A stretch of 64,000 bases of DNA from an uncultured bacterium. GTDB taxonomy: Bacteria > UBP4 > UBA4092. The position numbers and the translations under genes are program-made. Where the stretch lies: NCBI GenBank assembly GCA_964644695.1, contig CAZXWN010000012.1, positions 1-64,000 of the forward strand. Direction: 5' to 3'. The notes beneath the pieces were generated by a model. That model had not been told where the DNA came from, made no database searches, and saw nothing but the letters and a program-made list of their open reading frames with translations. This document shows, in pieces, positions 3,813-54,129 of the stretch. The number at the start of each line of letters is the position of its first letter. The stretch's first letter is position 1.

Positions 3813-3830
3813 GAGTTAATCCTAAATTGA

Positions 3831-4190: not shown

Positions 4191-4254
4191 TTTATATTCC
4201 CTCCCTTCCATATTTGTTTTTAATCTTTTTTCACTTTCGACATTTCATATTGAA

Positions 4255-4270
4255 AGCAAAGATTGTGCCA
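4255..4270 (-). promoter_or_regulatory. Sigma54 (-24/-12) promoter of the pilin genes
   Basis: Minus strand reads TGGCACAATCTTTGCT, matching TGGCAC-N5-TTGCW. It lies about 65 bp upstream of pilA, next to an NtrC-family activator gene. Confidence 0.9.
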
Positions 4271-4428
4271 GGTTGCCTGGCTAATAGAATAATATAAGAT
4301 AACGCCTTATTTATCAAGTGTTTTGAAAATTATTCTGCAAAGAAAGTTAATACAAATGGGTGTTTGGATGTGTATATGCGTATACATATTGTTTACTTTA
4401 CTTAACAGAAACGGATGGGATGTGGCTT

Positions 4429-22804: not shown

Positions 22805-23395
22805 ATGTCTAAAAAGGGTTTTACGCTTATTGAGTTATTGATTGTTGTGGCGATTATCGCCATCTTGGCGGCCATTGCTATTCCGAACTTCCTGGCTGCT
22901 CAAGTACGATCAAAAGTATCAAGGGTAAAGGCAGAATTACGAACTGTATCCACTGGATTGGAATCTTATTATGTTGATAACAATGAATATCCATTGAATA
23001 CTGGCCTCGCACCGCATACTCCAGAACAAATAGCTTTACGTCCTGCCGTATCGGTTCTTCCTTTGGAACTATCTACCCCCATTGCATATCTATCCAATGT
23101 AGATTTTAAAGATCCCTTTAAGAAACCTGGTCAGGCTGCAGATGAGGAGATTTATACATATCAGAATATTGACTTATATAAATCTCAATATGGAACACCC
23201 TACTGGGATGTCGCATTGGATTGGTACGGGAAGTATCGCTTATGTTCAATTGGGCCGGATGGAGTCTTTTCGAAAACTGGGAGTGCTGCAACACTTCAGT
23301 ATGATCCAACGAACGGTACTATATCTGATGGGAATATTTGGTCAGGACAAAAAGGTGCGGAACCGAAGAGTGGCCCAATTTATAACGGACTATAA
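22805..23395 (+). CDS. Prepilin / GspG-like pseudopilin
   Basis: KKG|FTLIELLIVVAII, YYVDNNEYP, DPF, SIGPDG and YDPTNGT. Strong RBS AAGGAGGTG. Confidence 0.9.
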   Translation: MSKKGFTLIELLIVVAIIAILAAIAIPNFLAAQVRSKVSRVKAELRTVSTGLESYYVDNNEYPLNTGLAPHTPEQIALRPAVSVLPLELSTPIAYLSNVDFKDPFKKPGQAADEEIYTYQNIDLYKSQYGTPYWDVALDWYGKYRLCSIGPDGVFSKTGSAATLQYDPTNGTISDGNIWSGQKGAEPKSGPIYNGL

Positions 23396-28621: not shown

Positions 28622-28651
28622 TTGACATAACAATCGTTTAGCAGATATAAA
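28622..28651 (+). promoter_or_regulatory. Candidate sigma70 promoter for the pilMN-fusion/secretin module
   Basis: TTGACA-N18-TATAAA preceded by an A-rich UP-like tract. Confidence 0.45.
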
Positions 28652-28744: not shown

Positions 28745-30511
28745 ATGCCAGATATCATTCCTGAAACCAGTTTTATTGGTATTGACATCGGCAGCAGTTG
28801 GGTCAAAGCCGTAGAGCTCAAAAAAGGGTTCGGCGGCTATGCCATCAGCAAAGTTGCCCGGAAGCAAATAGCTACACCGGAAACAGATACTCCTGAGGAA
28901 CGGCAGAAAGCTAGCATTTCTGCTGTGACTTCTCTTTTACGGGAGAACGGGATGACAGGCCGGAATGTTGTAGTCGGTCTTCCTGGCTATCAAATATTTG
29001 TTCGGAAAATGAGAGTTCCTGATGCGGGCGGGGACCGAATTGGTAAGATTGTTCAATATGAAGCTCGCCAGCAGATTCCTTTCCCCTTAGAAAAAATCAC
29101 ACTGGACTTTCATTACAAACCTATCGCTGACAGTAATGAAGTAGAAGTCCTTTTAGTTGGTTCAAAAAAAGAAATTATTGCAGAATACATGGGCTGGTAT
29201 CGCAAGTCGGGTTTGAAACTGAAATATTTGGATGTTTCTCCCGTCGCCCTGTATAACTTCCAAAAATATATTGATCCCGCCTTAGGTGATGAAGCCACAG
29301 CCTTAATTAATATTGGAGCTGCCACGACGGATATTAGTATTGTCCGTGATGGCGAACTTGGGTTTACCCGTACCGCTCCCGTTGGTGGCAACGATATTAC
29401 CCGTAACATAACAAAGTATCTTGAGACCGACTTTGCCCGGGCTGAAGAACTGAAACTTCAGTTTGGCCGTGTTCCTCTGGATTACGAAGTATCCCTTGGA
29501 TTAGATGAAGGGGGCTCCGCAGAAGAACAGTCTGTCAGTAAAGCCGTTGTGGCTGGATTAGACCGTATCGTTAATGAAATCCGTCGAACCTTTGATTACT
29601 ATATTTCTCAACCTGACGGTGTCGCTATTGGTCGTGTGGTTATCAGTGGTGGAACCTCCTTACTCAAGAATATTGAAGGTTTCCTGAGTGAGAAACTGGC
29701 TATTCCTGTAACGACTGTTTCATCCATGGAAACGTGGAGCAACCTAAAACAGGCACAGGATAAATTTGCCGAAGATATCCCATGGTGTACGACAGCTATC
29801 GGTTTAGCATTACGCAGTGCACCCAAAATTCCGAATATTACTCGAGTAGATTTCCTGCCGCAGGATTTGAAAAACATCCGCAACTTTAATCAAAAGCGAT
29901 TACAAATATTAATCGCTGCAATATTGATGTTTGTGGTTGTGTATGCCGGGTCGTTGGTGGGTGGTTCCAAAATCTCCCAGTTAACATCCCAGGCGAATGA
30001 ACTGAAGAGCAAAGCCCAACAGGTTAAATCCGGTAAAACTCAATACGATAGTTTACTGAAAAAGAAAGATGATATGGCTAAGGTCTATACAGGACTTCAG
30101 CTCGTTGTCGGTAAACGAGATTACTGGATGAATGCTTTGGCCGAAATAAATCAGAAACTCCCGGCTGACTTGTGGATTACGAAACTTCAGGCCTATCAGG
30201 ATTATGAACAGAAACAAACAGGTACCGGCGTTACGGGTATGATTTCTAACTTGGTCGGTAGTAGTCCATCTGGGCCGCAGTGGAAAATGGTTATTGAAGG
30301 CAAGACGACTCGCCAGGGTGCGGTGACTGATTTGGCGAATAATCTCCAAAGTGCAAAATTCATGTCTTACAACAAAGACGGTAAGCCTGAATTACGAACG
30401 ACCTTTATTTCTACATCTCCCACTCGAGACTCTCGTTTGGGTGTAGATGTTACATCGTTTACTTTTGAAATTATTTGTAAACCGCCGGCGTTTGCCGATC
30501 GGAAAATATAA
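28745..30511 (+). CDS. PilM-PilN fusion protein (GspL-like architecture)
   Basis: Actin-like PilM motifs GIDIGSS, NIGAATT, SGGTS and AIGLALR. These continue in frame into RVDFLP (PilN INLLP motif), a TM helix, a coiled coil and the PilN core (LAEINQKLPADLWITKL). Confidence 0.85.
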   Translation: MPDIIPETSFIGIDIGSSWVKAVELKKGFGGYAISKVARKQIATPETDTPEERQKASISAVTSLLRENGMTGRNVVVGLPGYQIFVRKMRVPDAGGDRIGKIVQYEARQQIPFPLEKITLDFHYKPIADSNEVEVLLVGSKKEIIAEYMGWYRKSGLKLKYLDVSPVALYNFQKYIDPALGDEATALINIGAATTDISIVRDGELGFTRTAPVGGNDITRNITKYLETDFARAEELKLQFGRVPLDYEVSLGLDEGGSAEEQSVSKAVVAGLDRIVNEIRRTFDYYISQPDGVAIGRVVISGGTSLLKNIEGFLSEKLAIPVTTVSSMETWSNLKQAQDKFAEDIPWCTTAIGLALRSAPKIPNITRVDFLPQDLKNIRNFNQKRLQILIAAILMFVVVYAGSLVGGSKISQLTSQANELKSKAQQVKSGKTQYDSLLKKKDDMAKVYTGLQLVVGKRDYWMNALAEINQKLPADLWITKLQAYQDYEQKQTGTGVTGMISNLVGSSPSGPQWKMVIEGKTTRQGAVTDLANNLQSAKFMSYNKDGKPELRTTFISTSPTRDSRLGVDVTSFTFEIICKPPAFADRKI

Positions 30512-30525
30512 AGAGGATTGAGACC

Positions 30526-30828
30526 ATGGCAAAAGTGAAAATGGATCCCCAGGATGTTCTTAAGCAGGTTATCAATCATTCTGAATATATTGTGATCGGT
30601 TTGTTGGTTTTAGTCCTAGTTGTTATGGTTCTTTTGATGGGACGGTCTTCAAAGCTGGAGTTACCTCCTCCCGGTAAAATTGATACGAATATGACTTTGC
30701 CAAAAGATGCTATAACGGATGTGGAACGTGCATTAAATGGATTGGTTCCCATTGAACAAAGCAAATATCAGAAGGAATTGTTAGAACGCAATATGTTTGC
30801 CCCGCAAGGACAAGCAGGTAATAATTAA
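30526..30828 (+). CDS. Small bitopic membrane protein, possibly a truncated GspC/PilP-like component
   Basis: RBS AGAGGA, one TM, Pro-rich linker, ends at ERNMFAP. Lies between the pilMN fusion and the secretin. Confidence 0.6.
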   Translation: MAKVKMDPQDVLKQVINHSEYIVIGLLVLVLVVMVLLMGRSSKLELPPPGKIDTNMTLPKDAITDVERALNGLVPIEQSKYQKELLERNMFAPQGQAGNN

Positions 30829-31032
30829 TTTCGTGAATGTGGATTTGATTCTGATCAAAAAGAATAAAGTGATGAGAATTAGATAAAACATTCATTTTGA
30901 ACTGTTAAGAGACGCTTGGTTTATGCTAACATAGGCGCTGTGTGTTTATGTTTTACTATATTGGGTTGGTTTATACCCAAAACAATTGAAGACAAACGAA
31001 AGAATAAATGAGAAATCATTTTTTGGAGGAAT

Positions 31033-34000
31033 GTGACTGTGCACACCAAAACAAGAAGATATCTAACGACACTGCTGATGGTCGGGTTCCTGCTAGGTTG
31101 TCTCCCGATGGGGTGGGCAGCTGCAGACTCCGATACCCTTCTCGCTGCCTCAACTACTAAGGACAAGGTCACTCTTTACCAAGAGGAGAAATCGGCGGCA
31201 ATTAATGCCTTCATGAAGGAAGGTAAGGACTTGCTGTCAAAAGGTAAATATGTGGAAGCAAAGGTCAAGTTCGAAAAGGCTTTGAAACTTGATCCTGAAA
31301 ATGCTGAAGCAAAAACTTACCTCCAAAAGTGTGATGAGGCCGCACAGTCAATTTCTACCAATGTGGTTCCCAGTACTCAGGATAAAAAAGCTGCTGAATT
31401 AAAAGCAAAAGAAGAAGCGAAAGCAAAGGCCGAAGCTGAGAAAGCCGCCCGTTTAGCGGCTGAGGCAAAAGCTAAAGCGGATGCTGAAGCCCAAAAAGCC
31501 GCCGAACTGGCCGCAAAAAAGGAAGCTGAAGCAAAAGCCAAGGCTGCAGCTGAAGCGCGTAAGGCCGCTGAGTTGAAAGCTAAGGAAGACTCAAAGCTTA
31601 AAGCTGAAGCTGATAAAAAAGCCAAATTAGAAGCTGAAGCAAAAGCCAAGGCCGATGCCGAAGCCAAGAAAGCCGCTGAATTAAAAGCAAAAGACGATGC
31701 TAAGCTGAAAGCTGAAGCTGCCAAGAAAGCACAGTTGGCTGCTGAGGCAAAAGCTAAAGCAGCTGCAGAAGCTAAGGCAAAACTGGAAGCTGAAGCCAAA
31801 AAAGCTGCTGAATTAAAAGCAAAAGAAGATGCCAAACTAAAAGCCGAAGCCGATAAAAAGGCTAAATTAGAAGCTGAAGCAAAAGCCAAGGCTGATGCCG
31901 AAGCCAAGAAAGCCGCTGAAAAAGCTAAATTGGAAGCTGAAGCAAAAGCTAAAGCAGCTGCAGAAGCTAAGGCAAAACTTGAAGCTGAAGCTAAAAAAGC
32001 TGCTGAATTAAAAGCAAAAGAAGATGCCAAACTAAAAGCTGAAGCCGATAAAAAAGCTAAATTAGAAGCTGAAGCAAAAGCCAAGGCTGATGCCGAAGCT
32101 AAGGCTAAAGCGGAAGCTGAATTGAAGAAAGCTGCTGAACTGAAAGCGAAGAAAGATGCCGAAGCAAAAATAGAAGCTGAAAAGCGTGCGAAAGAATTGG
32201 AAGCTTTACGGCAACAGCAAATTGAAGCGCAGAAAAAAGCCGAAGCTGCAAAAGCCAAAGCTGAAGCCGATAAACTTGCTGGACAGATTAAGGCCCTCAT
32301 TGCTGAAGGAAAGTCTCTCTATCAGTCTGGCAAAATTGAAGATTTAGATAAGGCGAAAGATACCTTTGAACAAGTACTGACACTTGATCCAGGGAATAAA
32401 GATGCTTCCCGGTACCTTTCACTTATTAATGAAAAAATCAAGAAAGCCCAAGAAGCAGAGGAAGCAGCTAAAGCTGCGCAGCCTCAGGCAAAAATCATTG
32501 AAACAAATGTTACCCAAAACGAAGTTGTGCAAACTGCTGCAGACAATAGTGTCTCAACGAATGACCAGGCACGTGCTGAAAGTATAAAAAAAGCAGAAGC
32601 TGAAGAAGCCAGATTCCGTGCTGAAAAAGCGCGGGAAGATGCTGCTCGTACCGTTAAATTAGTGGAAGAACACTATAAAGCCGGTATTGCATTCATGAAT
32701 CAAGGTCAAGTTTTGAAGGCTAATGAAGAATGGAATAAAGCTCTCGAATTAAATCCAGACTATACTCCAGCTCGTACCATGATTACTGAAACTCAGGCCG
32801 AGTATCTGAAAGCTCTGGAAGTACAGAGAGGCCAAGAAGAATTAGCCAAAATTGAAACTGAAAATGATGCCCGTATGAAGGAAAAAATCATCACTATTGA
32901 TGTTACAGATCAGGAAATCGGTGATGTTTTGACTCAGATGGGTGCTGTTGCAGGATTCAATGTTGTAATTGGTGAGGGTGTTAAAGCAAAAGTTAGCGCT
33001 TCTTTTGCAAATGTTTCACTGAAAGATGCTTTAGATAATTTATTACCTCAACATGGATTCAAATATGTGCGAAATGGAGATATCATCCAAGTCGCCGTTG
33101 ATCTTAAAACACGTATATTCCAGTTAACAGATGAACAGGTAAAGCGTCTCCGGTATGCGATGGTCGAAGACAAGATTCTTCAACGTCAGATTTACGGTTC
33201 TGATGCCAAACCAAAAGTTGCTGGTCAGGAAATGATTTTCGATGAACGGTCTCATATCCTTACCATAACTGATTCTCAAGCCAATATAACAAAGGTAGAT
33301 GAATTTTTAAAGAATCTTCCGGCCCCACAGGCTGATGAGTTGATTGTACGTGTCTATACTATTCGGACTGGAAGTGCCGAAGAAGTCAGAAAACTTGTTC
33401 AATCAATGGTAGATGCTGGTGCTGCAAATTCTCCTGATGCTGATGAAAGAAAAGTAATTCTTGAACAGAATGGGAATACCCTTGTTGTTAAGGATACTGC
33501 TGAAAGCTTAAAGAAAATTGAAGAATTTTTAATCGACCGTAATTTCTTGGATAAGTTAACAAATCAGGAATTATTGGTTAAGGTATTCCATCTTTCTACT
33601 GAAGAAAACATCATGACCCCTGAAGCTTTAGCCCGTAAAGCAGAATTAGTAAATAATGTTGGTGAAGTTATTGAGACTATGCTTTATACAGCTCAGGGAC
33701 GTGAACAGGCCTATGAAGAAGGTCGTCGTATCTATAAAGATGCACGAACTGGAACTATTACCGTAATTGATAACACAGACAATCTTCGGAAAGTTGAAGA
33801 GTATATTGCCCAGCTTCCGACAGGTGAAGAACAGCAGATGCTGAGTCGCATTTATACAATTAAGAATGCGGATCCTAATAGTCTGCGAAATGTAATTAAC
33901 CAGATTCTTCAGGAATCTAGGGGTGGTTCTGGTGGTGGTCAGGCTGGTTCTTATGTGACGGGTGTTATTTCGGTGGGTGCTGGAAATGGCCTAGTATTCA

Positions 34001-35292
34001 TGGATTGTACTGTTGAATTAAACGGTGTCGAAGGTGATACTACTACTCCAAGCGCACGTTTATACATCTACACCCCACTGCGTGATAGAGAAGTTACTCT
34101 TGCTAAGAATAACAGTGAACTGGTGGATAACTACCGTATTCGTGTTACTGATGCATGGGTTGATCGGCAGGAAGCTGAAATTGAAATTCGTTTAGCTTCA
34201 TTTGCTGCAACAAATAACTCAGCCAACCTTTATGGTGGAAATTATGGCACTGATGCTTTCAGCAACAACATGATGGGTCAGGGGTATGGTGCAAATCCCA
34301 TGTCATTGACCGGAACCACAAACCAAAATACAAAAACAAGCAGAGCTCCATCTCTTCGGGTTGATAATAGTACCAACAACATTATCGTGTTGGCTTATGA
34401 TCCAAAAGATTTGCAGATGATCGATGAGTGGATCAAAAAACTAGATGTAGCTATCCTCCAGGTTACGATTGAAGCAAAATTTGTCGAAGTCAGTGAGACC
34501 AGAGCTAGAAAACTGGCCGTTGATTGGCTTATCCCAAGTCTAAGCAACTGGGGAAGCTTGAAACCTAACAGTGATCCTGTTGGTTTTGGTCGAACAGTTA
34601 ACGGTTCTGCTGATCCAATTAAGACCGTTTTCAGTTCGGACCCACTCATTAGTGACTTGAGAAATAATAACCTGATGGCAGGTGGAGTTCAAATGAGCTA
34701 TGAGGCAATCGGTGGACTTCAAGTTGCGTTACAGGCCTTGGAGGCAGATGGCGTTGTTAATGTCATAAACTCTCCAAGAATTACTGCTCTTAATGGGGAA
34801 GAAGCTACCCTGACTGTTACCCAGAGTATTCCTTGGATGTCTTATGAAGTTAATTCAACTGCAACAAGTATTACTTGGGAAACGGATTCTGTAATTATCG
34901 AGTTAAAGGTTAAGCCAACAATCCACCAGGATGGTTCTGTAATTCTTGATATTGAACCTCGAGTTGACAAGCTTGTAGGTCGGGCTCAAGGTGGTAACTT
35001 TAACTTAACTGAAACAACGATTGGTTCGATTATCCCTGGATTGCAGACAATGTATAACACAACCTTCGGTCGCCCAATCATTGATACAAGAAATTTAACA
35101 ACTCGTGCTAGGGTTTCGGATGGTGGTACCATTGTTCTTGGTGGACTAATCCAGGAAACTGACAAGTCTTCTACTACGAAGGTGCCATTACTTGGTGATG
35201 TTCCATTTATCAAGTATCTATTTAGAAGAACGCAGGATGTTAAAGACAAAAACCGGTTATTTATCTTCTTAACAGCTACGATTGTTCCTTAA
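31033..35292 (+). CDS. Giant secretin (TPR + TolA-like Ala/Lys rod + N0 + four KH-type N domains + secretin core)
   Basis: Signal peptide, TPRs (ALKLDPEN, VLTLDPGN, ALELNPDY), C-terminal QVTIEAKFVEV, NSPRITALNGEEA, TIVLGGLI and KVPLLGDVPFIKYLFR. GTG start after GGAGGA. Confidence 0.9.
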   Translation: MTVHTKTRRYLTTLLMVGFLLGCLPMGWAAADSDTLLAASTTKDKVTLYQEEKSAAINAFMKEGKDLLSKGKYVEAKVKFEKALKLDPENAEAKTYLQKCDEAAQSISTNVVPSTQDKKAAELKAKEEAKAKAEAEKAARLAAEAKAKADAEAQKAAELAAKKEAEAKAKAAAEARKAAELKAKEDSKLKAEADKKAKLEAEAKAKADAEAKKAAELKAKDDAKLKAEAAKKAQLAAEAKAKAAAEAKAKLEAEAKKAAELKAKEDAKLKAEADKKAKLEAEAKAKADAEAKKAAEKAKLEAEAKAKAAAEAKAKLEAEAKKAAELKAKEDAKLKAEADKKAKLEAEAKAKADAEAKAKAEAELKKAAELKAKKDAEAKIEAEKRAKELEALRQQQIEAQKKAEAAKAKAEADKLAGQIKALIAEGKSLYQSGKIEDLDKAKDTFEQVLTLDPGNKDASRYLSLINEKIKKAQEAEEAAKAAQPQAKIIETNVTQNEVVQTAADNSVSTNDQARAESIKKAEAEEARFRAEKAREDAARTVKLVEEHYKAGIAFMNQGQVLKANEEWNKALELNPDYTPARTMITETQAEYLKALEVQRGQEELAKIETENDARMKEKIITIDVTDQEIGDVLTQMGAVAGFNVVIGEGVKAKVSASFANVSLKDALDNLLPQHGFKYVRNGDIIQVAVDLKTRIFQLTDEQVKRLRYAMVEDKILQRQIYGSDAKPKVAGQEMIFDERSHILTITDSQANITKVDEFLKNLPAPQADELIVRVYTIRTGSAEEVRKLVQSMVDAGAANSPDADERKVILEQNGNTLVVKDTAESLKKIEEFLIDRNFLDKLTNQELLVKVFHLSTEENIMTPEALARKAELVNNVGEVIETMLYTAQGREQAYEEGRRIYKDARTGTITVIDNTDNLRKVEEYIAQLPTGEEQQMLSRIYTIKNADPNSLRNVINQILQESRGGSGGGQAGSYVTGVISVGAGNGLVFMDCTVELNGVEGDTTTPSARLYIYTPLRDREVTLAKNNSELVDNYRIRVTDAWVDRQEAEIEIRLASFAATNNSANLYGGNYGTDAFSNNMMGQGYGANPMSLTGTTNQNTKTSRAPSLRVDNSTNNIIVLAYDPKDLQMIDEWIKKLDVAILQVTIEAKFVEVSETRARKLAVDWLIPSLSNWGSLKPNSDPVGFGRTVNGSADPIKTVFSSDPLISDLRNNNLMAGGVQMSYEAIGGLQVALQALEADGVVNVINSPRITALNGEEATLTVTQSIPWMSYEVNSTATSITWETDSVIIELKVKPTIHQDGSVILDIEPRVDKLVGRAQGGNFNLTETTIGSIIPGLQTMYNTTFGRPIIDTRNLTTRARVSDGGTIVLGGLIQETDKSSTTKVPLLGDVPFIKYLFRRTQDVKDKNRLFIFLTATIVP
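31384..32280 (+). repeat. Coding tandem repeats (Ala/Lys/Glu helical rod) inside the secretin
   Basis: Repeated units such as KAAELKAKEDAKLKAEADKKAKLEAEAKAKADAEAK. Near-identical DNA copies at about 31800 and 31995. Confidence 0.9.
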
Positions 35293-35305
35293 GTAAGTAT
35301 TGATT

Positions 35306-35343
35306 ACTCGTCCGCCGGCAATATTGTCGGCGGACGAGTCTTT
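35306..35343 (+). terminator. Intrinsic terminator after the giant secretin
   Basis: ACTCGTCCGCCGGCAA/TTGTCGGCGGACGAGT stem followed by CTTT. Confidence 0.75.
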
Positions 35344-35501: not shown

Positions 35502-38072
35502 ATGTCACCTAAATCATTTTATGTTGTTGATGGCAGTTCTTATTTGTACAGAGCTTTTTATGCTATCCCTGACCTGAAAAGTCCACAGGGGAAGCCGACT
35601 AATGTTATATATGGCATGGTTGGTATGCTCCAGAAATTAATTAAGGAAAACAGACCTGACTCTCTATGTGTTTGCTATGACCTTCCTGATCCAACATTTC
35701 GACATAAGGAATTTAAAGAATATAAGGCACAACGTAAGCCAACTCCTACAGATTTAGTTGCCCAAATAGAACCTGCAAAACAAGTGATTTCAGCCATGGG
35801 AATAGAACAGATGGAACTGAAAGGTTATGAGGCAGATGATTTAATGGCCTCATTAGCACTTGCGGGTTCTAAACAAGGATATGAGGTAATTTTGGCGACA
35901 GGCGATAAAGATATTTTGCAGCTCGTGTCAGATACTGTAAAAGTACTTAGAATTAACCCTGTTGGTCAAGAAATATATGATTTTGAAAAAATAAAGGAAA
36001 AATATGCTGTTTCACCCGAATGTTTGCCTGATTATCTAGGTTTAACAGGAGATGCTTCTGACAATTTTCCTGGAGTTCCAGGTATAGGTGACAAAACAGC
36101 AAAGAATCTTCTTTTGGAGTTCGGTGATTTAGATAATCTCTATGAAAAGATTCATCTTGTAAGAAATAAACGAGTTCGAGATATACTGATTGAAAATAGA
36201 GAGTTAGCCTTTTTTTCGCGCTCGTTAGCTACATTGAAAAATGATATTGAAATTACGAAATCAATCGAAGACTTTTCTATAAAAACACCTGATTACGAGA
36301 AATTGACGCAATATTTTGTTGAGTATGGGTTTTATAATCTATTAAACGAGTTGAAATCCAATGATGACCATAAATCAGAAGATAGTGAGTATAAACTCGA
36401 TTTAGATGAAATAATCCCTGTTACTGTTAATACATGTAGCTCATGGTGTGGCGCCTCCAAGATTATTGGAATTGCACAATATGAGGATCTGATAATTGGA
36501 TATAATGGGGATAGCTTTGCTCAGATAGAAATTGCCAACCTAAGTCAGTTGAAGTGCAGTGATAATAAAGAAAAGATATGGATTTGGAATGCAAAACCAT
36601 TGTGTAAAAGATTATTATCAGCAAATAAAGAACTGAAATTAATTTTAAATGACTTATCTATTGCCGCTTTGTTAGCAGGACACACTCAAGCTGATTCACT
36701 TGGAAAACTAGCATTAGAATTGAACAGGCACAATATGATTGAATCTGCTGAGTCAATTGATAGTGATAAGGTAAAAAGAAATACTGCAATACAGGCTTAT
36801 GAGACATTTTCCTTAGTTGAAAAGATTGAACAGGAACTTATTGATAAGAACTTGTCTGATTTGTTTATAAATATTGAGAATCCTCTTGTTGTATTGTTAG
36901 CCCAATTTGAATTGTCAGGCATAAAGGTAGATGTAACCCTCCTTAGAAAACTACAACAAGAATTACAGCATGAGGTGAATCAACTGGCACTTAAAATAAT
37001 GAATACGGCTGGGGTCGAGTTTAATATTAATTCCCCAAAGCAATTGGCTGATATTCTTTTTGAGAAGTTGAAGTTACCCACTGCAAAAAAAACGAAAACA
37101 GGCTTTTCAACCAATGTTGAAGTATTAGAATCTTTACGCGGTGTACACCCTTTGCCAGGAATGATCTTGGATTACCGGGCCCTGTACAAAATTTTAACAA
37201 CGTATGTGGAGAGTTATCTCTCATTAACTAAACCTGGACATGATATTATTCATACAAAGTTTGATCAAATGGGGGCGAACACGGGTCGAATTGTTAGTTC
37301 TGAACCAAATTTGCAGAACTTGCCGGTTTTTTCAGAGTGGTCTAATCGAATTAGACAGTGTTTTATACCCCGGACCGAAGACGCGTATTTTCTTAGCGCA
37401 GACTATTCGCAAATTGAATTGCGGATATTGGCTCATATTAGTCAGGATCCAGGATTAATACATGCATTTAAGAATGACAGAGATATTCATACAGAAACAG
37501 CTGTTAATGTTTTCAAGGTAATGAGTGAAATGGTTACCTCAGAAATGCGTAGAGCGGCAAAGGCTATCAATTTTGGCATTGTATATGGAATGAGTGCTTA
37601 TGGTCTTTCAAAGTCATTAAAGATTAATGTTTCGGAAGCTCAACGTTATATTGATAATTATTTTGAGCAGTATCATGGTGTAAGGGTTTATATGGATAAG
37701 GTGATAACCGAGGCCAGAGAAAAGGGTTTTGTCACTACACTAATGGGAAGAAGATGTCCCATATTGGACATTAAAAGTGTAAAAGCTAACATTAGAGAAG
37801 CTGCTGAGAGGCAAGCTATTAATGCCCCTATCCAGGGCAGTGCTGCTGATTTGATGAAACTGGCTATTCTGAAAGTCGCTGAAGCACTTACTCGTAATCA
37901 GTTAGAATCAAAAATATTGTTAACTATTCATGATGAGCTGATATTAGAAGTTCCCAAAAATGAGATTGAAGTGACAAAAGAATTATTAAAAGAAAATATG
38001 GAAAGAATTGTTAAATTATTAGTTCCGGTTCGAGTGGATATATCAATTGGCCGTTCCTGGGCTGAATGTTGA
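35502..38072 (+). CDS. polA: DNA polymerase I (degenerate 3'-5' exonuclease region)
   Basis: VDGSSYLYRAFYA, EADD, GDASDN, ADYSQIELR, KAINFGIVYG and IHDEL. Confidence 0.97.
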   Translation: MSPKSFYVVDGSSYLYRAFYAIPDLKSPQGKPTNVIYGMVGMLQKLIKENRPDSLCVCYDLPDPTFRHKEFKEYKAQRKPTPTDLVAQIEPAKQVISAMGIEQMELKGYEADDLMASLALAGSKQGYEVILATGDKDILQLVSDTVKVLRINPVGQEIYDFEKIKEKYAVSPECLPDYLGLTGDASDNFPGVPGIGDKTAKNLLLEFGDLDNLYEKIHLVRNKRVRDILIENRELAFFSRSLATLKNDIEITKSIEDFSIKTPDYEKLTQYFVEYGFYNLLNELKSNDDHKSEDSEYKLDLDEIIPVTVNTCSSWCGASKIIGIAQYEDLIIGYNGDSFAQIEIANLSQLKCSDNKEKIWIWNAKPLCKRLLSANKELKLILNDLSIAALLAGHTQADSLGKLALELNRHNMIESAESIDSDKVKRNTAIQAYETFSLVEKIEQELIDKNLSDLFINIENPLVVLLAQFELSGIKVDVTLLRKLQQELQHEVNQLALKIMNTAGVEFNINSPKQLADILFEKLKLPTAKKTKTGFSTNVEVLESLRGVHPLPGMILDYRALYKILTTYVESYLSLTKPGHDIIHTKFDQMGANTGRIVSSEPNLQNLPVFSEWSNRIRQCFIPRTEDAYFLSADYSQIELRILAHISQDPGLIHAFKNDRDIHTETAVNVFKVMSEMVTSEMRRAAKAINFGIVYGMSAYGLSKSLKINVSEAQRYIDNYFEQYHGVRVYMDKVITEAREKGFVTTLMGRRCPILDIKSVKANIREAAERQAINAPIQGSAADLMKLAILKVAEALTRNQLESKILLTIHDELILEVPKNEIEVTKELLKENMERIVKLLVPVRVDISIGRSWAEC

Positions 38073-38092
38073 TTTTGCAGGTGGTAAATATC

Positions 38093-38698
38093 ATGGATAA
38101 AAGATCCATTGTTATTGGTGTGACTGGTGGCACTGGTTGTGGTGTTACGGTTGTATCTCAACTCCTGAAAGAATGGGGGGGGGCTTTAGTTAGTGGAGAT
38201 CAGTTGGCCCGTGACATTATGCAATCAGGCATGCCCGCGTTTAACGCGGTAGTAGAGGCTTTTGGAGCGTCAATAGTAACACCCTCTGGTCAGCTTGACC
38301 GTCGTGGGCTTGGAACTATTGTTTTTAAGGATAAGGAAAAATTAGAACGACTTAACAAGGCCGTTCATCCTTTTTGGATTGCAGCAATCAAGGAGAATAT
38401 CGCAAAAGCGCGTGAGTCTGGGGTTGATGTAATCATTGTAGATGCTGCAATACTTTTGGAAACTGGGCTCAAAAGTTGTGTGGATAAGATAGTCGTAGTA
38501 ACGGCCCCCCTGCGTTTACGGAGAGCGCGTATTATGTCTCGGGATGATTTAGATGAAACACAAGCTGACCAAAGAATATTTTCACAGGTCCCTGTATCTG
38601 AAAAAATTAGCCAAGCTGATTATGTTATTGAAAATAACGGCACATTGGAGCAAATAAAAACAAAATTAGAGGAAATCAAGGCTGACCTACTGAGTTAG
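38093..38698 (+). CDS. coaE: Dephospho-CoA kinase
   Basis: [10 protein letters not shown] variant P-loop, LDRRGLG, VHP and ADYVIENNG. Follows polA. Confidence 0.9.
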
Positions 38699-38723
38699 TT
38701 TCAGTTTTGCAAAGGAGAGTAAT

Positions 38724-40235
38724 ATGGCACGTGCATCTGATGAAAACATGGACGCAAAAGAAATAAAGAATACAGAAGGTAGAACAGCAGAAACTGGACA
38801 AGTAACTCCTGCAGCCTCTTCTTCCAGTCGTACGGGGCATCCTCCTGTTCGTAAACGAGTCCCTCGCGCAGAGAAACCTGAGAAACAAGATAAAAAGGTC
38901 GTTGAAGTTGACCGGACAACCACATCCCCAGAAGTAAGTGCAAATGTTAATGCCGGTCCAAGTAATGATAAGCCAATTGATACGGGTCTAAATATAGCTG
39001 TATTACAGAAAATGACGATTGGCGATCTAAACCAGGTTGCAAATGAAATGGGTATTGAAGGTCATAGTGGACTTCGTAAGCAGGACATGATCTTTAAAAT
39101 TCTTGAAACCCAGGCAAAAAGAGCTGGCGTATTGTTTGGCGAAGGGGTGCTTGAAATATTGCCCGATGGCTTTGGTTTCCTTCGTTCTCCACAATATAAT
39201 TACTTGCCTGGTCCCGATGACATTTATGTATCTCCGTCCCAAATTCGCCGATTTGATTTGAGAACGGGTGATACTGTGGCTGGACAGATAAGATCACCCA
39301 AAGATAATGAAAGATACTTTGCTCTTTTAAAAGTAGAAGCTATAAACTTTGAAGATCCTGAACGAGCACGCGAGAAGATTCTTTTTGATAACTTAACTCC
39401 AATTTACCCAAATCAAAGATTACGCTTAGAAACTGGTCCTGATAATGTTACGGGGCGTGTTTTAGATTTAATTGCCCCTCTTGGCAAAGGACAGCGTGGT
39501 TTGATTGTTGCTGCACCCCGGACAGGTAAAACGATGCTTTTGCAGAGTATTGCCAACAGCATTAGCATTAATCACCCCGAAGTATATTTGATTGTATTAT
39601 TGATTGATGAACGTCCGGAAGAAGTAACAGATATGAAGCGAACGGTTAGGGGGGAAGTAGTTAGTTCAACCTTTGATGAACCACCAGAACGTCATATCCA
39701 AGTCGCTGAAATCGTCATTGAGAAAGCCAAACGTTTAACTGAATGTGGTCGTGATGTTGTCATTCTGATGGATTCTTTGACGCGTTTAGCTCGTGCAAAC
39801 AATAACTTGATCCCTCATTCCGGTAAAATTCTTTCTGGTGGTGTCGATGCTATGGCGCTTGCCAGACCAAAACGTTTCTTTGCTGCGGCTCGAAATATTG
39901 AAGAAGGTGGAAGTTTAACAATTATCGCCACTTGTCTTGTTGAAACAGGCAGCCGCATGGATGATGTTATTTTTGAAGAATTTAAAGCGACCGGAAATAT
40001 GGAAATGCATTTAGACCGGCGTTTAGTCGATCGTAGAATATTCCCGGCTGTTGAAATCTTCAAATCTGGAACTCGTAAGGAAGAATTGTTATTGTCCGAA
40101 AAGGAATTACGTCGTGTCTGGCTGTTGCGTAAAGCCCTCTCTGAAATGAATGTTATCGAAATCATGGAAATGCTGGTGGAGCGAATTGGTAAGACCCGGA
40201 GTAACAGCGAATTCCTTGATAAAATGAACAATTAG
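38724..40235 (+). CDS. rho: Transcription termination factor Rho
   Basis: [30 protein letters not shown] and [10 protein letters not shown]. Has an ~85-aa N-terminal extension. Confidence 0.98.
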
Positions 40236-47281: not shown

Positions 47282-48442
47282 GTGCTGAAACTTTTTGGTA
47301 AAAAAGGTTCTGTATTAGGTGTAGACTTGGGCACCAGTAGTGTCAAAGTCGTTCAAGCCAGTACCTCCGGGAAAAAGGTGGTCATTGAACGGGTCGGTTT
47401 TGCTCCGGTCAAATTAGAAGGGAACCGAACAGATCCTTCTGATCAGGCCTTAACCGATGCCCTGAAAGTGGCTCTCGCGGAGTCAGGAGCAACTTCACGC
47501 GATGTGTGTTGTTCTATCAGCGGCGATTCAGTGATTGTTCGTTATCTTCAATTCCCGGATATGCCGGATGATGAACTGGGATATGCTCTGCGTTTGCAGG
47601 CAGAAGAATTTATCCCCTTCCGGCTGGACGAAGTCAATCTCGATTATTACCGGTTAACTCCCACCACGAAAGACCCCGGCAAGAAAGCGGATCTTATTTT
47701 GGTGGCGGCTCGGAAAGACTTAGTGACCCGTCGTGTCGATATCTTGCGTTCTGCAGGATTAAATCCGGTCATTATGGATACTGATTCTTTCGCCGTTTTG
47801 AATTGTGTGGAGAGTGTACATACTTTTGGTGGAGATGAAGTGTTAGCCTTGGTTAGTATGGGTGCTACCTATACAAATATCAATATTTTCGAAGGCAATA
47901 TCTCTCGATTTGCCCGTGATATTACAGCTGGGGGAAATACGATATCTCAAGCTATCTCGTCACGAATGCAACTGTCTTTCAGCGAAGCTGAACGAATTAA
48001 ATGTGAAGAAGGATTTGTTTCATCACAGGATGTTGTTCAGGAAAGACCTGCATCAACTCCGGGAATCGCAGAAGTCATTAAGGATACCGTTGAGAAAATT
48101 ACCGGTGAGCCCATGGATGGTGATTCACGAAAGGCAAAATTAAATGGCATTATCCGGGTTCCCGTTCAAAACCTCTTGACCGAAATCCGGCGATCACTGC
48201 AGTTTTATGAAAACCAGCCTAACGGCAAACCCATTAATAAAATATTATTAACGGGTGGTGGTGCTATGCTGAAAAACCTGGATCAGTATATGTCAGAGCG
48301 ATTGGGGCTTCCCGTCACAGTTATCAGCCCTATCGAAAATGCTGAAATCAAGAATCCTTCCCAGGCCGACCGTATTAAGACCATAGCCCCCCGATTAACC
48401 GTTGCTATTGGACTGGCACTTAGACAAGTGGGGGATAAGTAA
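47282..48442 (+). CDS. pilM: Type IV pilus assembly protein PilM
   Basis: LGVDLGTSSVK, EEFIPFRLDEVNLDY, LVAARKD, TGGGAML and AIGLALR. Confidence 0.92.
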   Translation: MLKLFGKKGSVLGVDLGTSSVKVVQASTSGKKVVIERVGFAPVKLEGNRTDPSDQALTDALKVALAESGATSRDVCCSISGDSVIVRYLQFPDMPDDELGYALRLQAEEFIPFRLDEVNLDYYRLTPTTKDPGKKADLILVAARKDLVTRRVDILRSAGLNPVIMDTDSFAVLNCVESVHTFGGDEVLALVSMGATYTNINIFEGNISRFARDITAGGNTISQAISSRMQLSFSEAERIKCEEGFVSSQDVVQERPASTPGIAEVIKDTVEKITGEPMDGDSRKAKLNGIIRVPVQNLLTEIRRSLQFYENQPNGKPINKILLTGGGAMLKNLDQYMSERLGLPVTVISPIENAEIKNPSQADRIKTIAPRLTVAIGLALRQVGDK

Positions 48443-48445
48443 GCC

Positions 48446-49033
48446 ATGATACGAGTTAACTTATTGCCACAATTAGAAAAACAAAAAAGAGCCACCCAAG
48501 TCCCACCTTTCTTTCTTTGGGCATTGTTGGCGGCAATTGCTATCGTTGCCTGTACCTACTTCTTTCAACAATTTCGTGTAACCACCGCAAAACGGGATAT
48601 TAAACGAATGGAGAAAGAATTAAAGGAAATGTCTCCTAAAGTGGCTTCGTACCAGCAGCAACTCAAAGACCTTGAGCAAAAGAAACAAGCTCAAGACGAA
48701 TTGACCCGTTACAAATTTCTATGGTCTAAGAAGCTAAATGCACTTTCGAACATTTTGCCGGACAATATGAAATTTCAGCAGATTCGGGTGGAAAATAGAG
48801 ACAGCGAAAAAGTCCTACATATTGAAGGTGTTTCATATTGCCGGTCTGGTGAAGAACGTACCGAGCAAATTGGAAAACTGATTACAGCGCTTAAAACCCC
48901 GGACTTCTACAACAAACCAAGTGGAGAGCCCAATTTCGGAGAAATTAAACTCCTGAAAGCAACAAGCACTGAAGAAGGTAAAGACATGGGGCTTCAGGTT
49001 TTTGATTTCGCAATTGAAATGGTGATTCTTTAA
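48446..49033 (+). CDS. pilN: Type IV pilus assembly protein PilN
   Basis: MIRVNLLP motif, TM, coiled coil and LSNILPDNM. Confidence 0.88.
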   Translation: MIRVNLLPQLEKQKRATQVPPFFLWALLAAIAIVACTYFFQQFRVTTAKRDIKRMEKELKEMSPKVASYQQQLKDLEQKKQAQDELTRYKFLWSKKLNALSNILPDNMKFQQIRVENRDSEKVLHIEGVSYCRSGEERTEQIGKLITALKTPDFYNKPSGEPNFGEIKLLKATSTEEGKDMGLQVFDFAIEMVIL

Positions 49034-49054
49034 GGAGATTGGAAGGAATTCTTT

Positions 49055-49666
49055 ATGGCAAATCCGATGACCAAAGAAGAAAAACAATGGGTAGTCGTAA
49101 CCATCATGTTTGTGGCTGTCATCTTGGTCGCTTTTTATTTCCTTTATTTCAAAAAATCAGTCGGTGAGTATAGTAAAATTGCTAAAACCCGCACTGAACT
49201 GAAAGAAGAAGTAAAGTCGATGAAAGATGTCCTTGAAGGGGGCTCTTTGCAGAACCAGATTGCAGACTTGGAAGTTAAGATTGCTCGTTTTGAAGAAAGA
49301 CTGCCCAGTGAAAAGGATGTTCCAAAATTAATGACATTTTTACGGGAAGCCGCAGACTCTGCAGGTGTTTCCTATAAATCCATCGCCACAATGCCACAAG
49401 TTCCTGAAACTTATTATATTGAGATCCCATATAATGTGGAGTTGATTGGGCGTTACCATAATATTGGCCGATTTTTAAATCAAGTTGAGAATCAAACCCG
49501 TATTATGAAGGTTGATAGTATGGATTTGACCGCTGCTTCAGGTGAAGAAATTGGTCATAGCGCGAAATTCCGTTTGGTTACCTATATGTATAATCCTGTC
49601 GGTGTTGTTTCGGAAGATACTACCTCCGCGGACAAAGACAAGAAGAAGAAAAAGAAGGAGAAATAA
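49055..49666 (+). CDS. pilO: Type IV pilus assembly protein PilO
   Basis: TM, LPSEKDVPKL, YIEIP and GRYHNIGRFL...RIM. Confidence 0.9.
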   Translation: MANPMTKEEKQWVVVTIMFVAVILVAFYFLYFKKSVGEYSKIAKTRTELKEEVKSMKDVLEGGSLQNQIADLEVKIARFEERLPSEKDVPKLMTFLREAADSAGVSYKSIATMPQVPETYYIEIPYNVELIGRYHNIGRFLNQVENQTRIMKVDSMDLTAASGEEIGHSAKFRLVTYMYNPVGVVSEDTTSADKDKKKKKKEK

Positions 49667-49671
49667 CCATC

Positions 49672-50187
49672 ATGCGGAAGCTATTTTCTCAACTGATATT
49701 GGTCATGTTATTGGCTGCATGTTGCATTCAGTGGGCTAGTGCAATAAGAGTTATTGATGAAGCCCCTGCGGCAGCAGATACAGCCTCTGCAGCTAAACCC
49801 GTTCTGAATCCTGCTGTTCCTGATGACGCAGATTTTCCTACTTATCAATACGACAGCAAGGGTAAGAGCGATCCTATGGAAGTGCCGTGGAGGTCTGGTG
49901 CACCGTTAGTATCAAAGACTTCTCCAGGTGCTAATGGGAAGGTTGATGTTAAACCCGCGGATTTGGAGATTAATGTTCGTGAAGTCGTGAAATCTCAGCT
50001 TACGGGTATTGTTTATAATGAAAGCGTTCCATCAACTTCCAGTGTGATTCTGAATGGGAAGCTGGCTAAGGCCGGTAATACCATTCAGTTAAAAGGTCTG
50101 CCTGAGTCTTTAAAACTGACCCGTATAACCAAAAACGAAATTCTGGTGACATACCAGAAAAAATCATATTCCATTAAGTTGAATTAA
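49672..50187 (+). CDS. pilP: PilP-like protein
   Basis: Signal peptide, YDSKGKSDPM (YxxxxxRDPF-like), LTGIVY...VILNG...GNTI beta domain. Sits between pilO and pilQ. Confidence 0.6.
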   Translation: MRKLFSQLILVMLLAACCIQWASAIRVIDEAPAAADTASAAKPVLNPAVPDDADFPTYQYDSKGKSDPMEVPWRSGAPLVSKTSPGANGKVDVKPADLEINVREVVKSQLTGIVYNESVPSTSSVILNGKLAKAGNTIQLKGLPESLKLTRITKNEILVTYQKKSYSIKLN

Positions 50188-50191
50188 AAAC

Positions 50192-51787
50192 ATGCTAATA
50201 AAATGCCAGCAGTTCATTGATGCCATGGGAGGAAATCCACCGATGAGATTCGGAAATGAACACAAAGCCCACACAATTTGGACCCGAGGGATATTAAGTA
50301 CTATCCTGGTCGTGTCCCTGATATCTGTACCGTTAACACTTGTAACGGCAGATGAACCCAATCCCGCGTATAAAGCAACAAAGGTTAAGAAAGTCAGTGT
50401 TAGTGCTGAAGCAGAGAAAGCCATGGCTGCAATCGCCCCCATGGATCGTCTGGTCTCTGCCTCATTTTCACAGGCTGACTTGCCGGATGTAATCCGAGTT
50501 TTGTCTGAACAGGCAAAATTGAACATCTATGCTGGCCCGGAGGTTGTTGGTAAAGTGACCCTCCAGGTCCAGAATCGCCCTGTAGGTGAAGTATTAAAAT
50601 ATGTTCTTGATATAAATGGCTTTAACTTTGAGCAAATTGGTGATGATGCTGTACGCGTTTATGCCAAACCTCAACCAGTTAAACCAGAACCTCCTGCCCC
50701 CAAGGGTCCAATAACCAAGGTTTTTGCAGTTGATTATTCTGGTGCCGATGAAATTGCAACAGCTATCGAAAAGCTTATCAAAGTGGATGCTATCCAGACG
50801 ATGAAAGCCCCGGCTCTAAATAAGGGAAGCCGTGGCAATGTTGTCTCTGGTGCAGGTACTATTATTGTTACTGCTAATGATGATGTAATGAAACAAGTTG
50901 AACAATTGATCCGTAAATTGGATAAACCCATTCAACAAGTCATGATTGACATTCGGATGGTCAGCATTCAGTTAGAGTCTAATAAGGATTTAGGCTTTGG
51001 CTGGGATGGTGCCTTGGGTGGTTCCTGGAATGGTGCTAATGCGGTAGGTGTTGGTTATACTCCTGCCATGGGAAATTTATTTAATACATCGACAACCATT
51101 GCAGGATTAATATCAGCACCATTTTCTGCAGGTGGTTTAACTAATGGAAATCTGGGTAATTTTGTCTTCAATCTTTCAACGGATAGCCGCTCCTTGGTGG
51201 GTGCTCTCAGAGCGATGATTGAAGAACAAAAGGCTGATTTGTTGGCTAATCCTCGTTTGATTGCTTTAAATAATACTGAGTCAAATTTTGATTTAACGGA
51301 AGAACTTCCTTATGTTGAATTTCAGTTAGATCAACAGACAAATACATTGACCGGAACTGCTAAGTTTGATAAAAAAGCAGGAATTCAATTAACTGTCGCT
51401 CCACAGATTACTTCTGATGGCAGAATTCTGATGAGGGTTGTTCCTGAACAAACACTACATAAAGGTGATGTCAAAATACAAACCGCAGCAGGTGCACCCA
51501 TAACAGGAATTCCAATTATTGATATCAGGAAAGTGGATGTGACCGTGATGATGAATAATGGTCAGACTTTAGTGATAGGTGGGTTAAGAAGTAAGAATGA
51601 AACTCTCACTGAGAGTAAAATTCCATGGTTGTCTGATATCCCAATGTTAGGAAATCTCTTTAAGATGAAAAGCACGGCTACAACTCGGAGTGAGTTGGTT
51701 ATCTTAGTGACCCCAACGATAGTTCCGAATGATGTGGCCTTAACTACGGAAGAAAAGATGATGTATGACAAGGTGGATTTCTTTTAA
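50192..51787 (+). CDS. pilQ: Type IV pilus secretin PilQ (short, no AMIN domains)
   Basis: N0 (VSASFSQADLPDVIR), one KH domain, QQVMIDIRMV, LLANPRL and KIPWLSDIPMLGNLFK. Start uncertain (alternative Met at 50243). Confidence 0.88.
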   Translation: MLIKCQQFIDAMGGNPPMRFGNEHKAHTIWTRGILSTILVVSLISVPLTLVTADEPNPAYKATKVKKVSVSAEAEKAMAAIAPMDRLVSASFSQADLPDVIRVLSEQAKLNIYAGPEVVGKVTLQVQNRPVGEVLKYVLDINGFNFEQIGDDAVRVYAKPQPVKPEPPAPKGPITKVFAVDYSGADEIATAIEKLIKVDAIQTMKAPALNKGSRGNVVSGAGTIIVTANDDVMKQVEQLIRKLDKPIQQVMIDIRMVSIQLESNKDLGFGWDGALGGSWNGANAVGVGYTPAMGNLFNTSTTIAGLISAPFSAGGLTNGNLGNFVFNLSTDSRSLVGALRAMIEEQKADLLANPRLIALNNTESNFDLTEELPYVEFQLDQQTNTLTGTAKFDKKAGIQLTVAPQITSDGRILMRVVPEQTLHKGDVKIQTAAGAPITGIPIIDIRKVDVTVMMNNGQTLVIGGLRSKNETLTESKIPWLSDIPMLGNLFKMKSTATTRSELVILVTPTIVPNDVALTTEEKMMYDKVDFF

Positions 51788-53598: not shown

Positions 53599-54129
53599 AT
53601 GGCCGCTGAATGGGTAACAGGAAAAACACTGTGGATTCGGATGGGAATACTGGTTTGTGTGATTGTTTTTGTATGGATATACTTTTTTCATATACAGCCT
53701 CATCCATATCGGAAGGTGTGGATTGGTGTAGTGGCTCCAATGGACAGGCCAAATTCTCAATTCATTGAGTATGGTACTGAAGCTGCTGTTTTTCGCTGGA
53801 ATCTGAATGGTGGAATATTTAGTTTGATGATTAAAGAAGATAAATGTACTCCCAGAACATTAATCAATGAGGCCCAGATTTTATATGGTTATCAGACAGT
53901 TAGAAATCTGTTGGGAGTCATTGTTGCTGCAGATTCTACACATTCTAGAGTCTGGCAATACAAGCAGGGGATACCTATTTTTTATGCAGTCGATTCTGCG
54001 GGTGCTGACCAGGCCGTTAATTCATTATTGAAAGCAATTAAGGAAAATTACACGATTAACAGAGAAATAATATATTCTATTGTTTCATCTCAAACAAAAC
54101 AGTATCCAGTTTCAGAGGTGCCCCATTAA
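53599..54129 (+). CDS. Membrane-anchored protein resembling an internally deleted LivJ/LivK (type 1 periplasmic-binding) protein
   Basis: TM followed by WIGVVAPM...AAVFRWNLNGGI...EDKCTP (LivJ N-terminal pattern) and DQAVNSLLKAI (C-terminal helix pattern). Only 176 aa. Confidence 0.45.
   Translation: MAAEWVTGKTLWIRMGILVCVIVFVWIYFFHIQPHPYRKVWIGVVAPMDRPNSQFIEYGTEAAVFRWNLNGGIFSLMIKEDKCTPRTLINEAQILYGYQTVRNLLGVIVAADSTHSRVWQYKQGIPIFYAVDSAGADQAVNSLLKAIKENYTINREIIYSIVSSQTKQYPVSEVPH

Follow-up and report, generated by a model that had tools for sequence, protein, structure and literature searches.

A three-gene unit was analysed in a 64,000-nt stretch of DNA (the window) from an uncultured bacterium of the UBP4 class (GenBank assembly GCA_964644695.1, contig CAZXWN010000012.1, positions 1 to 64,000). 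The unit encoded PilM and PilN as one chain, a 100-aa bitopic protein and a 1419-aa secretin. Based on all comparisons, it was concluded that the unit is probably the alignment and secretin part of a type IV filament (T4F) machine similar to the MUL2 (Amuc_1098-1101) system of Akkermansia, with its genes dispersed over three loci. The machine appeared to work like MUL2 while failing strict membership of the MUL2 families, and it did not appear to be PilO-less. Its dedicated PilO was most likely a 409-aa protein encoded on contig C1, and its motor and platform were most likely encoded by a pilB-pilT-pilB-pilC cluster with pilin-like genes on contig C14. The machine does not represent a new kind of system. 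The unusual points are a small protein without the secretin-binding beta domain and a secretin with a GspD-like stack of five N domains, a beta insert specific to its lineage and an extension of helices and tetratricopeptide repeats (TPRs).

The three-gene unit and its conservation

The source genome (G000; 3.07 Mb, 98.7% complete) was one of five in its class. The features of the window are collected in Table 1. The first gene product was read in a single frame and matched Pfam PilM_2 (E 8e-45, aa 8-358) and, weakly, PilN (E 0.003, aa 465-551). A transmembrane (TM) segment at about aa 388-406 was followed by a periplasmic coiled coil and a ferredoxin-like PilN part, an architecture that was kept across the aligned homologues. 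The best NCBIfam match was Amuc_1101_fam (NF045709; model positions 5-484 of 608, 258 bits). An assembly error behind the fusion, which the sequence-only reading had named as a possible refutation, was ruled out, as was a frameshift: one stop-free frame was present in all four class relatives, and in two runs from other studies, contigs (X4 record 2 and X5 record 12) spanned the PilM-PilN junction with no indel listed. The stop of the small gene was likewise crossed by contigs (X6 record 18 and X7 record 27) with no indel listed, and no TPR remnant was found 3' of it. The three genes are real, the short second one included.

Table 1. Features of the three-gene unit and its surroundings in the window
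Feature	Position	Strand	Description and basis
Candidate sigma70-type promoter	28622..28651	+	TTGACA (28622-27), 18 nt, TATAAA (28646-51); by eye
PilM-PilN fusion, Amuc_1101-like	28745..30511	+	588 aa; Pfam, NCBIfam, 38 aligned homologues, junction-spanning contigs
PilP/GspC-type bitopic protein, Amuc_1099 position	30526..30828	+	100 aa; alignments, hhalign
Giant secretin	31033..35292	+	1419 aa, GTG start after GGAGG; Pfam, AF2 model, fold matches
TolA-like A/K/E repeat linker of the secretin (aa 106-415)	31348..32277	+	37% Ala, 26% Lys, 17% Glu; weak TIGR02794 match
All-beta domain of about 80 aa in the last N domain (aa about 974-1054)	33952..34194	+	AF2 model strands
GC-rich hairpin of 16 bp 3' of the secretin stop, weak U tract	about 35307..35342	+	sequence folding
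polA-coaE-rho	35502..40235	+	names from sequence likeness, no family-library scan
Separate canonical pilMNOPQ, own PilO at 49055-49666	47282..51787	+	Pfam; 12.0 kb downstream of the unit

The order of pilMN fusion, small gene and secretin start was found in 5/5 UBP4 genomes, the contig of one of them (G004) ending inside the secretin gene, and polA-coaE-rho stood behind the unit in all four UBP4 genomes with sequence there. In a second phylum, Sumerlaeota, the giant secretin was present in 56 of the 61 sampled genomes (E<=1e-40), and 36 of these 56 loci were retrieved, picked for long contigs and spread. Both pilMN and secretin were present in 34 of the 36, with one small TM protein between them in every case (34/34); one of the remaining loci began at the secretin. 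Two Hinthialibacterota genomes held a three-gene version with a middle protein of 517-519 aa. As the sequence-only reading had noted, pilO was absent from the unit (open reading frame and Pfam scan), and none was found within the 34 Sumerlaeota, five UBP4 and two Hinthialibacterota units. The search for synteny in relatives that had been proposed there returned a conserved unit.

In a tree of PilM (49 rows), UBP4, Sumerlaeota and Hinthialibacterota fell together (SH-aLRT 98) and were nested in a larger group of fusions (SH-aLRT 90), apart from canonical PilM, including that of the pilMNOPQ operon 12 kb away. All trees were quick IQ-TREE runs with SH-aLRT support only. This placement and the best NCBIfam match bore out two earlier claims, namely that the unit is a module separate from the standard operon and that Amuc_1098-1101 is the closest known layout. 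The PilM-PilN fusion as such is not special; the source genome encoded a second one of 539 aa (on C9), and fusions occurred in many lineages. No description of the unit in Sumerlaeota, UBP4 or Hinthialibacterota was found in the literature, and the synteny figures S3-S4 of PMC13174399 may bear on its novelty.

Four-gene cassettes with an in-operon PilO

Further, 401 genomes sampled across the domain were searched with the Amuc_1101 model. Many stop-free PilMN fusions were detected, and most of the 20 loci retrieved had an extra gene behind pilMN. Among the second genes scanned, 11 matched Amuc_1100_fam, one of them above the cut-off, and two are called Amuc_1100-family by NCBI. The order MN-O-P-secretin before polA was recorded in 7/20 loci, five of which also had coaE and rho. 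The same four-gene order was present in the phylum of genome G040 (25 loci), and such cassettes also occurred in Ca. Ancaeobacter and other candidate lineages.

These cassettes resembled the unit in having the same order minus O, in sharing the polA/coaE/rho address in several cases and in the homologous N-terminus of their third protein. They differed in keeping O in place, in their longer third protein (with a beta domain in the G040 phylum) and in secretins without the beta insert. Some of them carried two tandem secretins, and in others the secretin was split into a TPR/N-terminal gene and one or two short barrel genes (both forms among L309, L313, L314, L319, L323 and L325). A locus of another lineage (G017; L067:6491-17001) encoded a PilMN that contains a long repeat of Pro and Ala, PilO, a PilP-like protein, a 1067-aa protein of immunoglobulin (Ig) repeats and a secretin whose N-terminal parts look AMIN-like and Ig-like.

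The probable dedicated PilO

The sequence-only reading had proposed that the machine either borrows PilO from the canonical operon or does without one. Neither proposal was supported; a dedicated pilO most likely lies elsewhere, at G000:C1:415794-417023. This gene, hereafter the orphan, encoded a stand-alone 409-aa TM protein behind aroB-aroQ. A Pfam PilO search of the genome returned the canonical gene, the GspM on C5 and a weak match within the orphan, which passed the model as a whole protein (26.5 bits vs a cut-off of 22). Among 32 members of the orphan family (E<=0.05), PilO was matched in 8 and T2SSM in 6. The AlphaFold2 (AF2) model (pLDDT 80) consisted of a TM segment, a coiled coil and a domain of ferredoxin-like fold, together with a helical insert at aa about 94-235. 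In Foldseek searches against PDB, ranks 1-10 were all Amuc_1100 chains, followed by Pseudomonas aeruginosa PilO, and an Atlas search led to Amuc_1100 clusters at 0.89; against PDB sequences, chance coiled-coil matches only were obtained.

At the profile level, the orphan family matched 13 in-operon second genes of the four-gene cassettes at 98.0% over 245 columns, canonical PilO at 84.1% over 60 columns and GspM at 45.9%. In the reverse direction, the profile of the 13 in-operon genes ranked the orphan top in the source genome (48.5 vs 25.9 bits) and in the complete genome G044 (26.5 vs 16.5 bits). By fold and profile, the orphan was classed as an Amuc_1100-like PilO rather than as an NCBIfam equivalog.

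Orphan orthologues followed aroB-aroQ in three of the four class relatives (G002-G004). The fourth (G001) lacked both the orphan and the neighbouring aroQ, which suggests an unassembled region. In Sumerlaeota, 49/61 genomes were positive with one query and 10 of the 12 misses were recovered by profile, giving 59/61; the two genomes without an orphan were 87% and 81% complete. Of 25 Hinthialibacterota, 17 gave weak matches, most of which lay in reading frames some 800 aa long, and one complete example aligned at 97%. The proteins ranged from 409 to 760 aa, reaching about 800 aa in Hinthialibacterota, where two of them (L329:100-2610 and L354:5802-8213) contained an insert of ~300 aa that looked lectin/LamG-like by eye. 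Among the genomes tested, only lineages that possess the three-gene unit had the orphan; it was not found in G040 or G017, both of which have an in-operon O. The distances of orphan and unit were correlated (r 0.89, 25 pairs).

A tally of components led to the same gene. The source genome contained 4 secretins, 4 PilM/GspL, 4 PilO/GspM and 4 PilC/GspF; a fifth weak PilM/GspL match was probably FtsA. The other three modules each carried their own PilO/GspM. In the complete genome G044, 3 secretins and 3 PilM/GspL stood beside two O/M genes in operons and the orphan.

The candidate motor

In two genomes (G191 and G330), pilB-pilT-pilB-pilC directly preceded pilMN. The best matches to these intact loci in the source genome lay on C14 in the same gene order, with 4/4 genes of G330, PilT and PilC of G191 and PilC of a third genome (G348), and the C14 cluster ran on into about nine pilin-like genes. 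Its PilC and PilT each had one clear orthologue in 11/11 genomes tested, the PilC of G004 being split over two frames, and PilT passed TIGR01420. In G044 and G045, a PilB with its best match on C14 was located about 4.4-5.3 kb upstream of the unit. The intact loci point to the C14 cluster as the most likely motor and platform of the unit, and the presence of PilT makes the machine probably retractile. Another pair, pilB-pilC on C1, encoded an equivalog PilB and adjoined dprA; it more likely serves the canonical pilMNOPQ than the unit. A further PilB/GspE-like ATPase of 510 aa (L076:8340-9872; G000:C1:220339-221871), whose N-terminus looks membrane-spanning, had no adjacent platform gene.

The shortened middle protein

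The sequence-only reading had described the second gene product as a truncated PilP/GspC-type bitopic protein, and this description stood. The protein had one TM segment (about aa 21-39) and no family match. Its residues 4-91 were homologous to the third gene product of the G040-phylum cassettes (hhalign 97%), which runs on into a beta-rich domain, and it aligned at 94% with the 517-aa Hinthialibacterota form, which continues into TPRs and a beta-rich end. The 100-aa protein stopped just past a conserved N-[ML]-F motif, with neither a beta domain nor a TPR hairpin; across 36 homologues, only N89, F91 and two TPR positions were conserved. A TPR-like hairpin behind the motif was seen by eye in 32/34 Sumerlaeota and 3/5 UBP4 proteins, and nothing followed the motif in G000, G001, G041 and G082.

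Likeness to canonical PilP was 0.2%, and a comparison with a set including an Amuc_1099-family member gave TM-level likeness only (66% over 26 columns). No NCBIfam match, and thus no Amuc_1099-family match, was obtained. By sequence the protein can be called the positional equivalent of Amuc_1099 only. An Atlas search led weakly and with low recognition to unnamed Planctomycetota clusters. The PilP/HR beta domain is the part that binds secretin N0 in structures of the type IV pilus (T4P) and the type II secretion system (T2SS). As the protein ends at aa 100 with neither the PilP N0-binding beta domain nor the GspC HR domain, the platform-to-N0 link is missing in the unit.

The giant secretin

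Pfam matches of the secretin covered TPR, STN/N0, three Secretin_N stretches and Secretin, in agreement with the earlier assignment. The domains were arranged as a signal peptide, a TPR, the Ala/Lys/Glu linker, TPRs, N0, three KH-type N domains, N3 with an insert and the secretin domain. An AF2 model of aa 530-1419 (pLDDT 75; pTM 0.36, domain packing unreliable) comprised TPR, N0, three N domains, an N3 broken by a beta domain of 80 aa together with a flexible linker, and the barrel; an S domain was absent from it. The best fold matches were GspD proteins of the T2SS (6i1x, 6hcg and 5zdh), and the GspD equivalog model TIGR02517 was not reached (228 bits vs a cut-off of 351).

Among 39 homologues of 1228-1954 aa, a core of 859-999 aa was conserved, and the N-terminal part varied from 302 to 1095 aa, being Ala/Lys/Glu-rich with TPR hairpins. 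The length of the linker differed between genomes and strains, and contigs of other runs contained joints that skip or repeat parts of it. The beta insert was present in 12/12 UBP4 and Sumerlaeota secretins and in 0/27 others of the tree set, and in the secretin tree these two lineages formed a clade (support 97). The idea that the insert is a relocated PilP/HR domain was unsupported (hhalign 0.7% to the third protein of the G040 phylum). The insert had no match among PDB sequences; the secretin, N0 and TPR parts accounted for most of what the structure searches matched, and the insert alone was not queried.

The same insert was observed in two exported proteins encoded elsewhere in the source genome. 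One, of 262 aa (L261:1727-2515; G000:C5:101726-102514), combined it with an N3-like domain and had homologues in G001 and G002 only, of 5 genomes tested; it is possibly a soluble decoy or a subunit. The other, of 349 aa (L260:1720-2769; G000:C1:187719-188768), had an N-terminal beta domain, TPRs and the insert domain, with full-length homologues in G001 and G002 only, of 29 tested. Both look family-level only, outside the core parts of the machine.

Comparison with known systems

The unit shared with MUL2 the leading PilM-PilN fusion, the bitopic third protein, the final TPR secretin and an Amuc_1100-fold partner in the genome. The synteny legend of PMC13174399 names coaE, rho and aroQ as MUL2 neighbours. 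Amuc_1098 is described in PMC4960237 as a secretin of 907 aa that carries three TPRs at its N-terminus, and Amuc_1100 is said to resemble T4P and T2SS proteins (PMC13119276). Unlike in MUL2, the Amuc_1100-like gene was out of the operon and enlarged, the third protein had no C-terminal domain, and the secretin had more N domains, the beta insert and the long A/K/E linker. No counterpart of Amuc_1102 (MUL2A) was identified, two tRNA genes lying upstream of the unit, though no search of the genome with an Amuc_1102 model was made. In Hinthialibacterota, an exported protein of 646-675 aa preceded pilMN (L322:1606-3633 and L324:1564-3504), at the place of Amuc_1102 in Akkermansia; it had a Gly/Ser-rich N-terminus, a repeated beta-rich domain and no NCBIfam match.

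With the type IVa pilus (T4aP) and its PilMNOPQ, the unit shared the PilM, PilN and PilO folds and a probable PilB/PilT/PilC motor. It differed in the fused PilM and PilN, in a PilP-like protein that is not a lipoprotein and has no beta domain, in a secretin without AMIN domains and in two PilB-type ATPases flanking PilT. The T2SS proteins GspCDLM were matched by the GspL-like single chain, the GspC-like bitopic protein and the GspD-like N0 with stacked N domains. Unlike the T2SS, the unit had no HR domain, no S domain, a full PilM-type cytoplasmic domain and PilT in its candidate motor. The N domains of GspD are N0-N3, and the secretin had one more. The earlier suggestion of a T2SS/T4P hybrid fits in part, through the N-domain stack and a likely motor including PilT.

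Evidence against the proposed assignment and alternative readings

Several observations weighed against the conclusion that the unit belongs to a dispersed MUL2-like machine. Every NCBIfam Amuc cut-off was missed: the fusion fell short of the 650 bits of Amuc_1101_fam, the secretin scored 72.5 bits vs 750 for the Amuc_1098 family even with TPRs present, and the orphan had no match to Amuc_1100_fam. The secretin tree did not join the secretin to the Amuc_1098 group (support 9). One Sumerlaeota locus (G051; L166) had the secretin and no pilMN in 6.1 kb upstream. The Foldseek fits of the orphan were weak globally (TM-score by target 0.47-0.52, root-mean-square deviation 12-21 Å), alignment of its profile with the G040-phylum in-operon O reached only 14%, and the in-operon profile scored the 32 orphans at 0.4-48.5 bits, one canonical PilO (30.5) standing above many of them. 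The Hinthialibacterota genome G408 had the three-gene unit and no orphan match, and since the unit and the orphan are near-core, their co-occurrence and distance correlation may only mirror shared descent. In no genome examined was the orphan adjacent to the unit, so that their partnership rests on homology, co-occurrence and elimination. As regards the motor, both PilBs of G191 best matched C2 instead of C14, and G044 had 4 PilC for 3 secretins.

It was also considered that the same parts form a T2SS-like exporter with a periplasmic pseudopilus in place of a retractile surface pilus. The secretin matched GspD best by HMM and fold and had a multi-N-domain stack, the PilMN chain is equivalent to GspL and the small protein is bitopic like GspC; moreover, the C14 pilins matched GspG/H/K models and one C14 ATPase passed the GspE cut-off. 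Against these points stood the missing S domain, two other T2SS-like modules in the source genome (C5; C9 with C2) and PilT inside the motor cluster, both here and in the intact G191 and G330 loci, and an exporter was judged unlikely.

A DNA-uptake pilus, which the sequence-only reading had also named, was regarded as less likely still. It would suit polA, which was present at 26/36 Sumerlaeota loci, and the ComEA-type helix-hairpin-helix (HhH) stretch in the C14 PilX/GspK-like protein. However, HhH-like stretches are commonplace in proteins of the GspK type, polA, coaE and rho mark a housekeeping address, and dprA lies behind the C1 motor pair.

That no PilO is needed, with the PilN part homodimerising or secretin parts bridging the periplasm while the orphan serves another system, appeared improbable. 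PilN/GspL homodimers are known, pilO is consistently missing from the unit and G408 yielded no orphan, yet every other PilN/GspL in G000 and G044 has a PilO/GspM and the orphan kept to lineages with the three-gene unit. Borrowing of the canonical PilO was the most improbable of all: canonical PilO was present in the unit-bearing genomes tested (5/5 and 5/5) and the two operons are separated by 12 kb in G000 and share a contig in G001, but in G002, G003, G034 and G044 they lie at a great distance or on different contigs, the conserved orphan would be left partnerless, and the four-gene versions use an Amuc_1100-like O, to which the orphan is more similar than PilO 49055 is.

Proposed mechanism and function

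For the dispersed MUL2-like machine, we infer a mechanism from the known architecture of T4aP and T2SS. The cytoplasmic PilM half would seat the ATPases, and the PilN half would pair with the orphan PilO through the TM, coiled-coil and ferredoxin domains. The small protein would clamp the PilN-PilO dimer by its TM and N-x-F segment. The C14 ATPases would extend the filament and PilT would retract it, the filament leaving through the long GspD-like secretin channel. The N-domain stack and the helical extension of the secretin would span a wide periplasm, and its TPRs would be the obvious candidates for joining the platform to the secretin.

MUL2 probably mediates surface attachment and is linked to periplasmic glycan accumulation, as stated in PMC13174399. 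By analogy with MUL2, which is the only guide to function, attachment to particles or cells together with the capture of polymers was put forward tentatively as the job of the machine, at somewhat under even chances. Protein secretion was considered less likely than attachment, being improbable in itself, and DNA uptake was also less likely than attachment and rather more doubtful than secretion.

A bolder reading, which we regard as possible though doubtful, would make the machine a third, ancient class of envelope-spanning T4F machine that belongs to the core of Sumerlaeota, UBP4 and, probably, Hinthialibacterota. The link from PilP/GspC-HR to N0 would have been lost stepwise, from TPRs and a beta-rich C-terminus (Hinthialibacterota) through one TPR hairpin (most) to nothing (G000), and would have been replaced by a tether of the secretin itself. 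This tether, hundreds of residues of charged helix with TPR hairpins and about 46 nm at most if one helix, would reach down to the enlarged PilO or the small protein. The beta insert, located below the gate, would form a ring binding substrate or filament, possibly for bulk import of polymers through the secretin.

Flanking features and other filament machinery of the genome

A promoter and a terminator had been proposed for the unit from the sequence. The predicted promoter looks plausible by eye; it was absent from the list of the scanner, and promoter-like sites occurred near chance (20 vs 14.4±3.8). The hairpin was present (-32.0 kcal/mol for the whole 68-nt stretch), but only TTT followed it, the terminator scan did not call it, and polA continued on the same strand, so the proposed terminator has partial support. 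In G001, repeated DNA lay upstream of the syntenic block (L057:54-717) and looked CRISPR-like by its translation.

Operon splitting is common in the source genome. A second split system was found on C9 (L063:7778-12769; L075:7244-10793; L077:6500-8930), with a GspL/PilMN-like fusion, GspM, a GspC-like protein and a secretin; its GspE/F were on C2 and its pseudopilins elsewhere on C9, and its counterpart in G044 was one intact T2SS-like locus. Genome-wide, 28 pilin-like genes with a near-identical N-terminus were scattered singly or in small groups (in the window, 22805-23395). At 3362-7393 of the window, two small class III pilins stood directly downstream of a PAS-HAMP kinase and a sigma54 regulator (PilS/PilR-like), likely the major-pilin locus of the canonical pilus. 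Membrane glycosyltransferase-like genes (TMEM260-like, PMT_2 and PTPS-related) at 1376-3358, 10008-11675 and 54080-55840 suggest extensive protein glycosylation in this bacterium.

Implications

With this analysis, the MUL2-type machine of Akkermansia, itself of unresolved mechanism, is traced into several phyla that have few or no cultured members. Candidates for the dispersed partners are PilO on C1 and PilB-PilT-PilB-PilC on C14, which an operon-only annotation would miss and so score the machine as incomplete. The intact G191 and G330 loci suggest which motor drives this class of machines. Finally, the series of third proteins, in which the beta domain is present, absent or in an intermediate state, constitutes a natural experiment on the need for the contact between PilP/GspC and the secretin.

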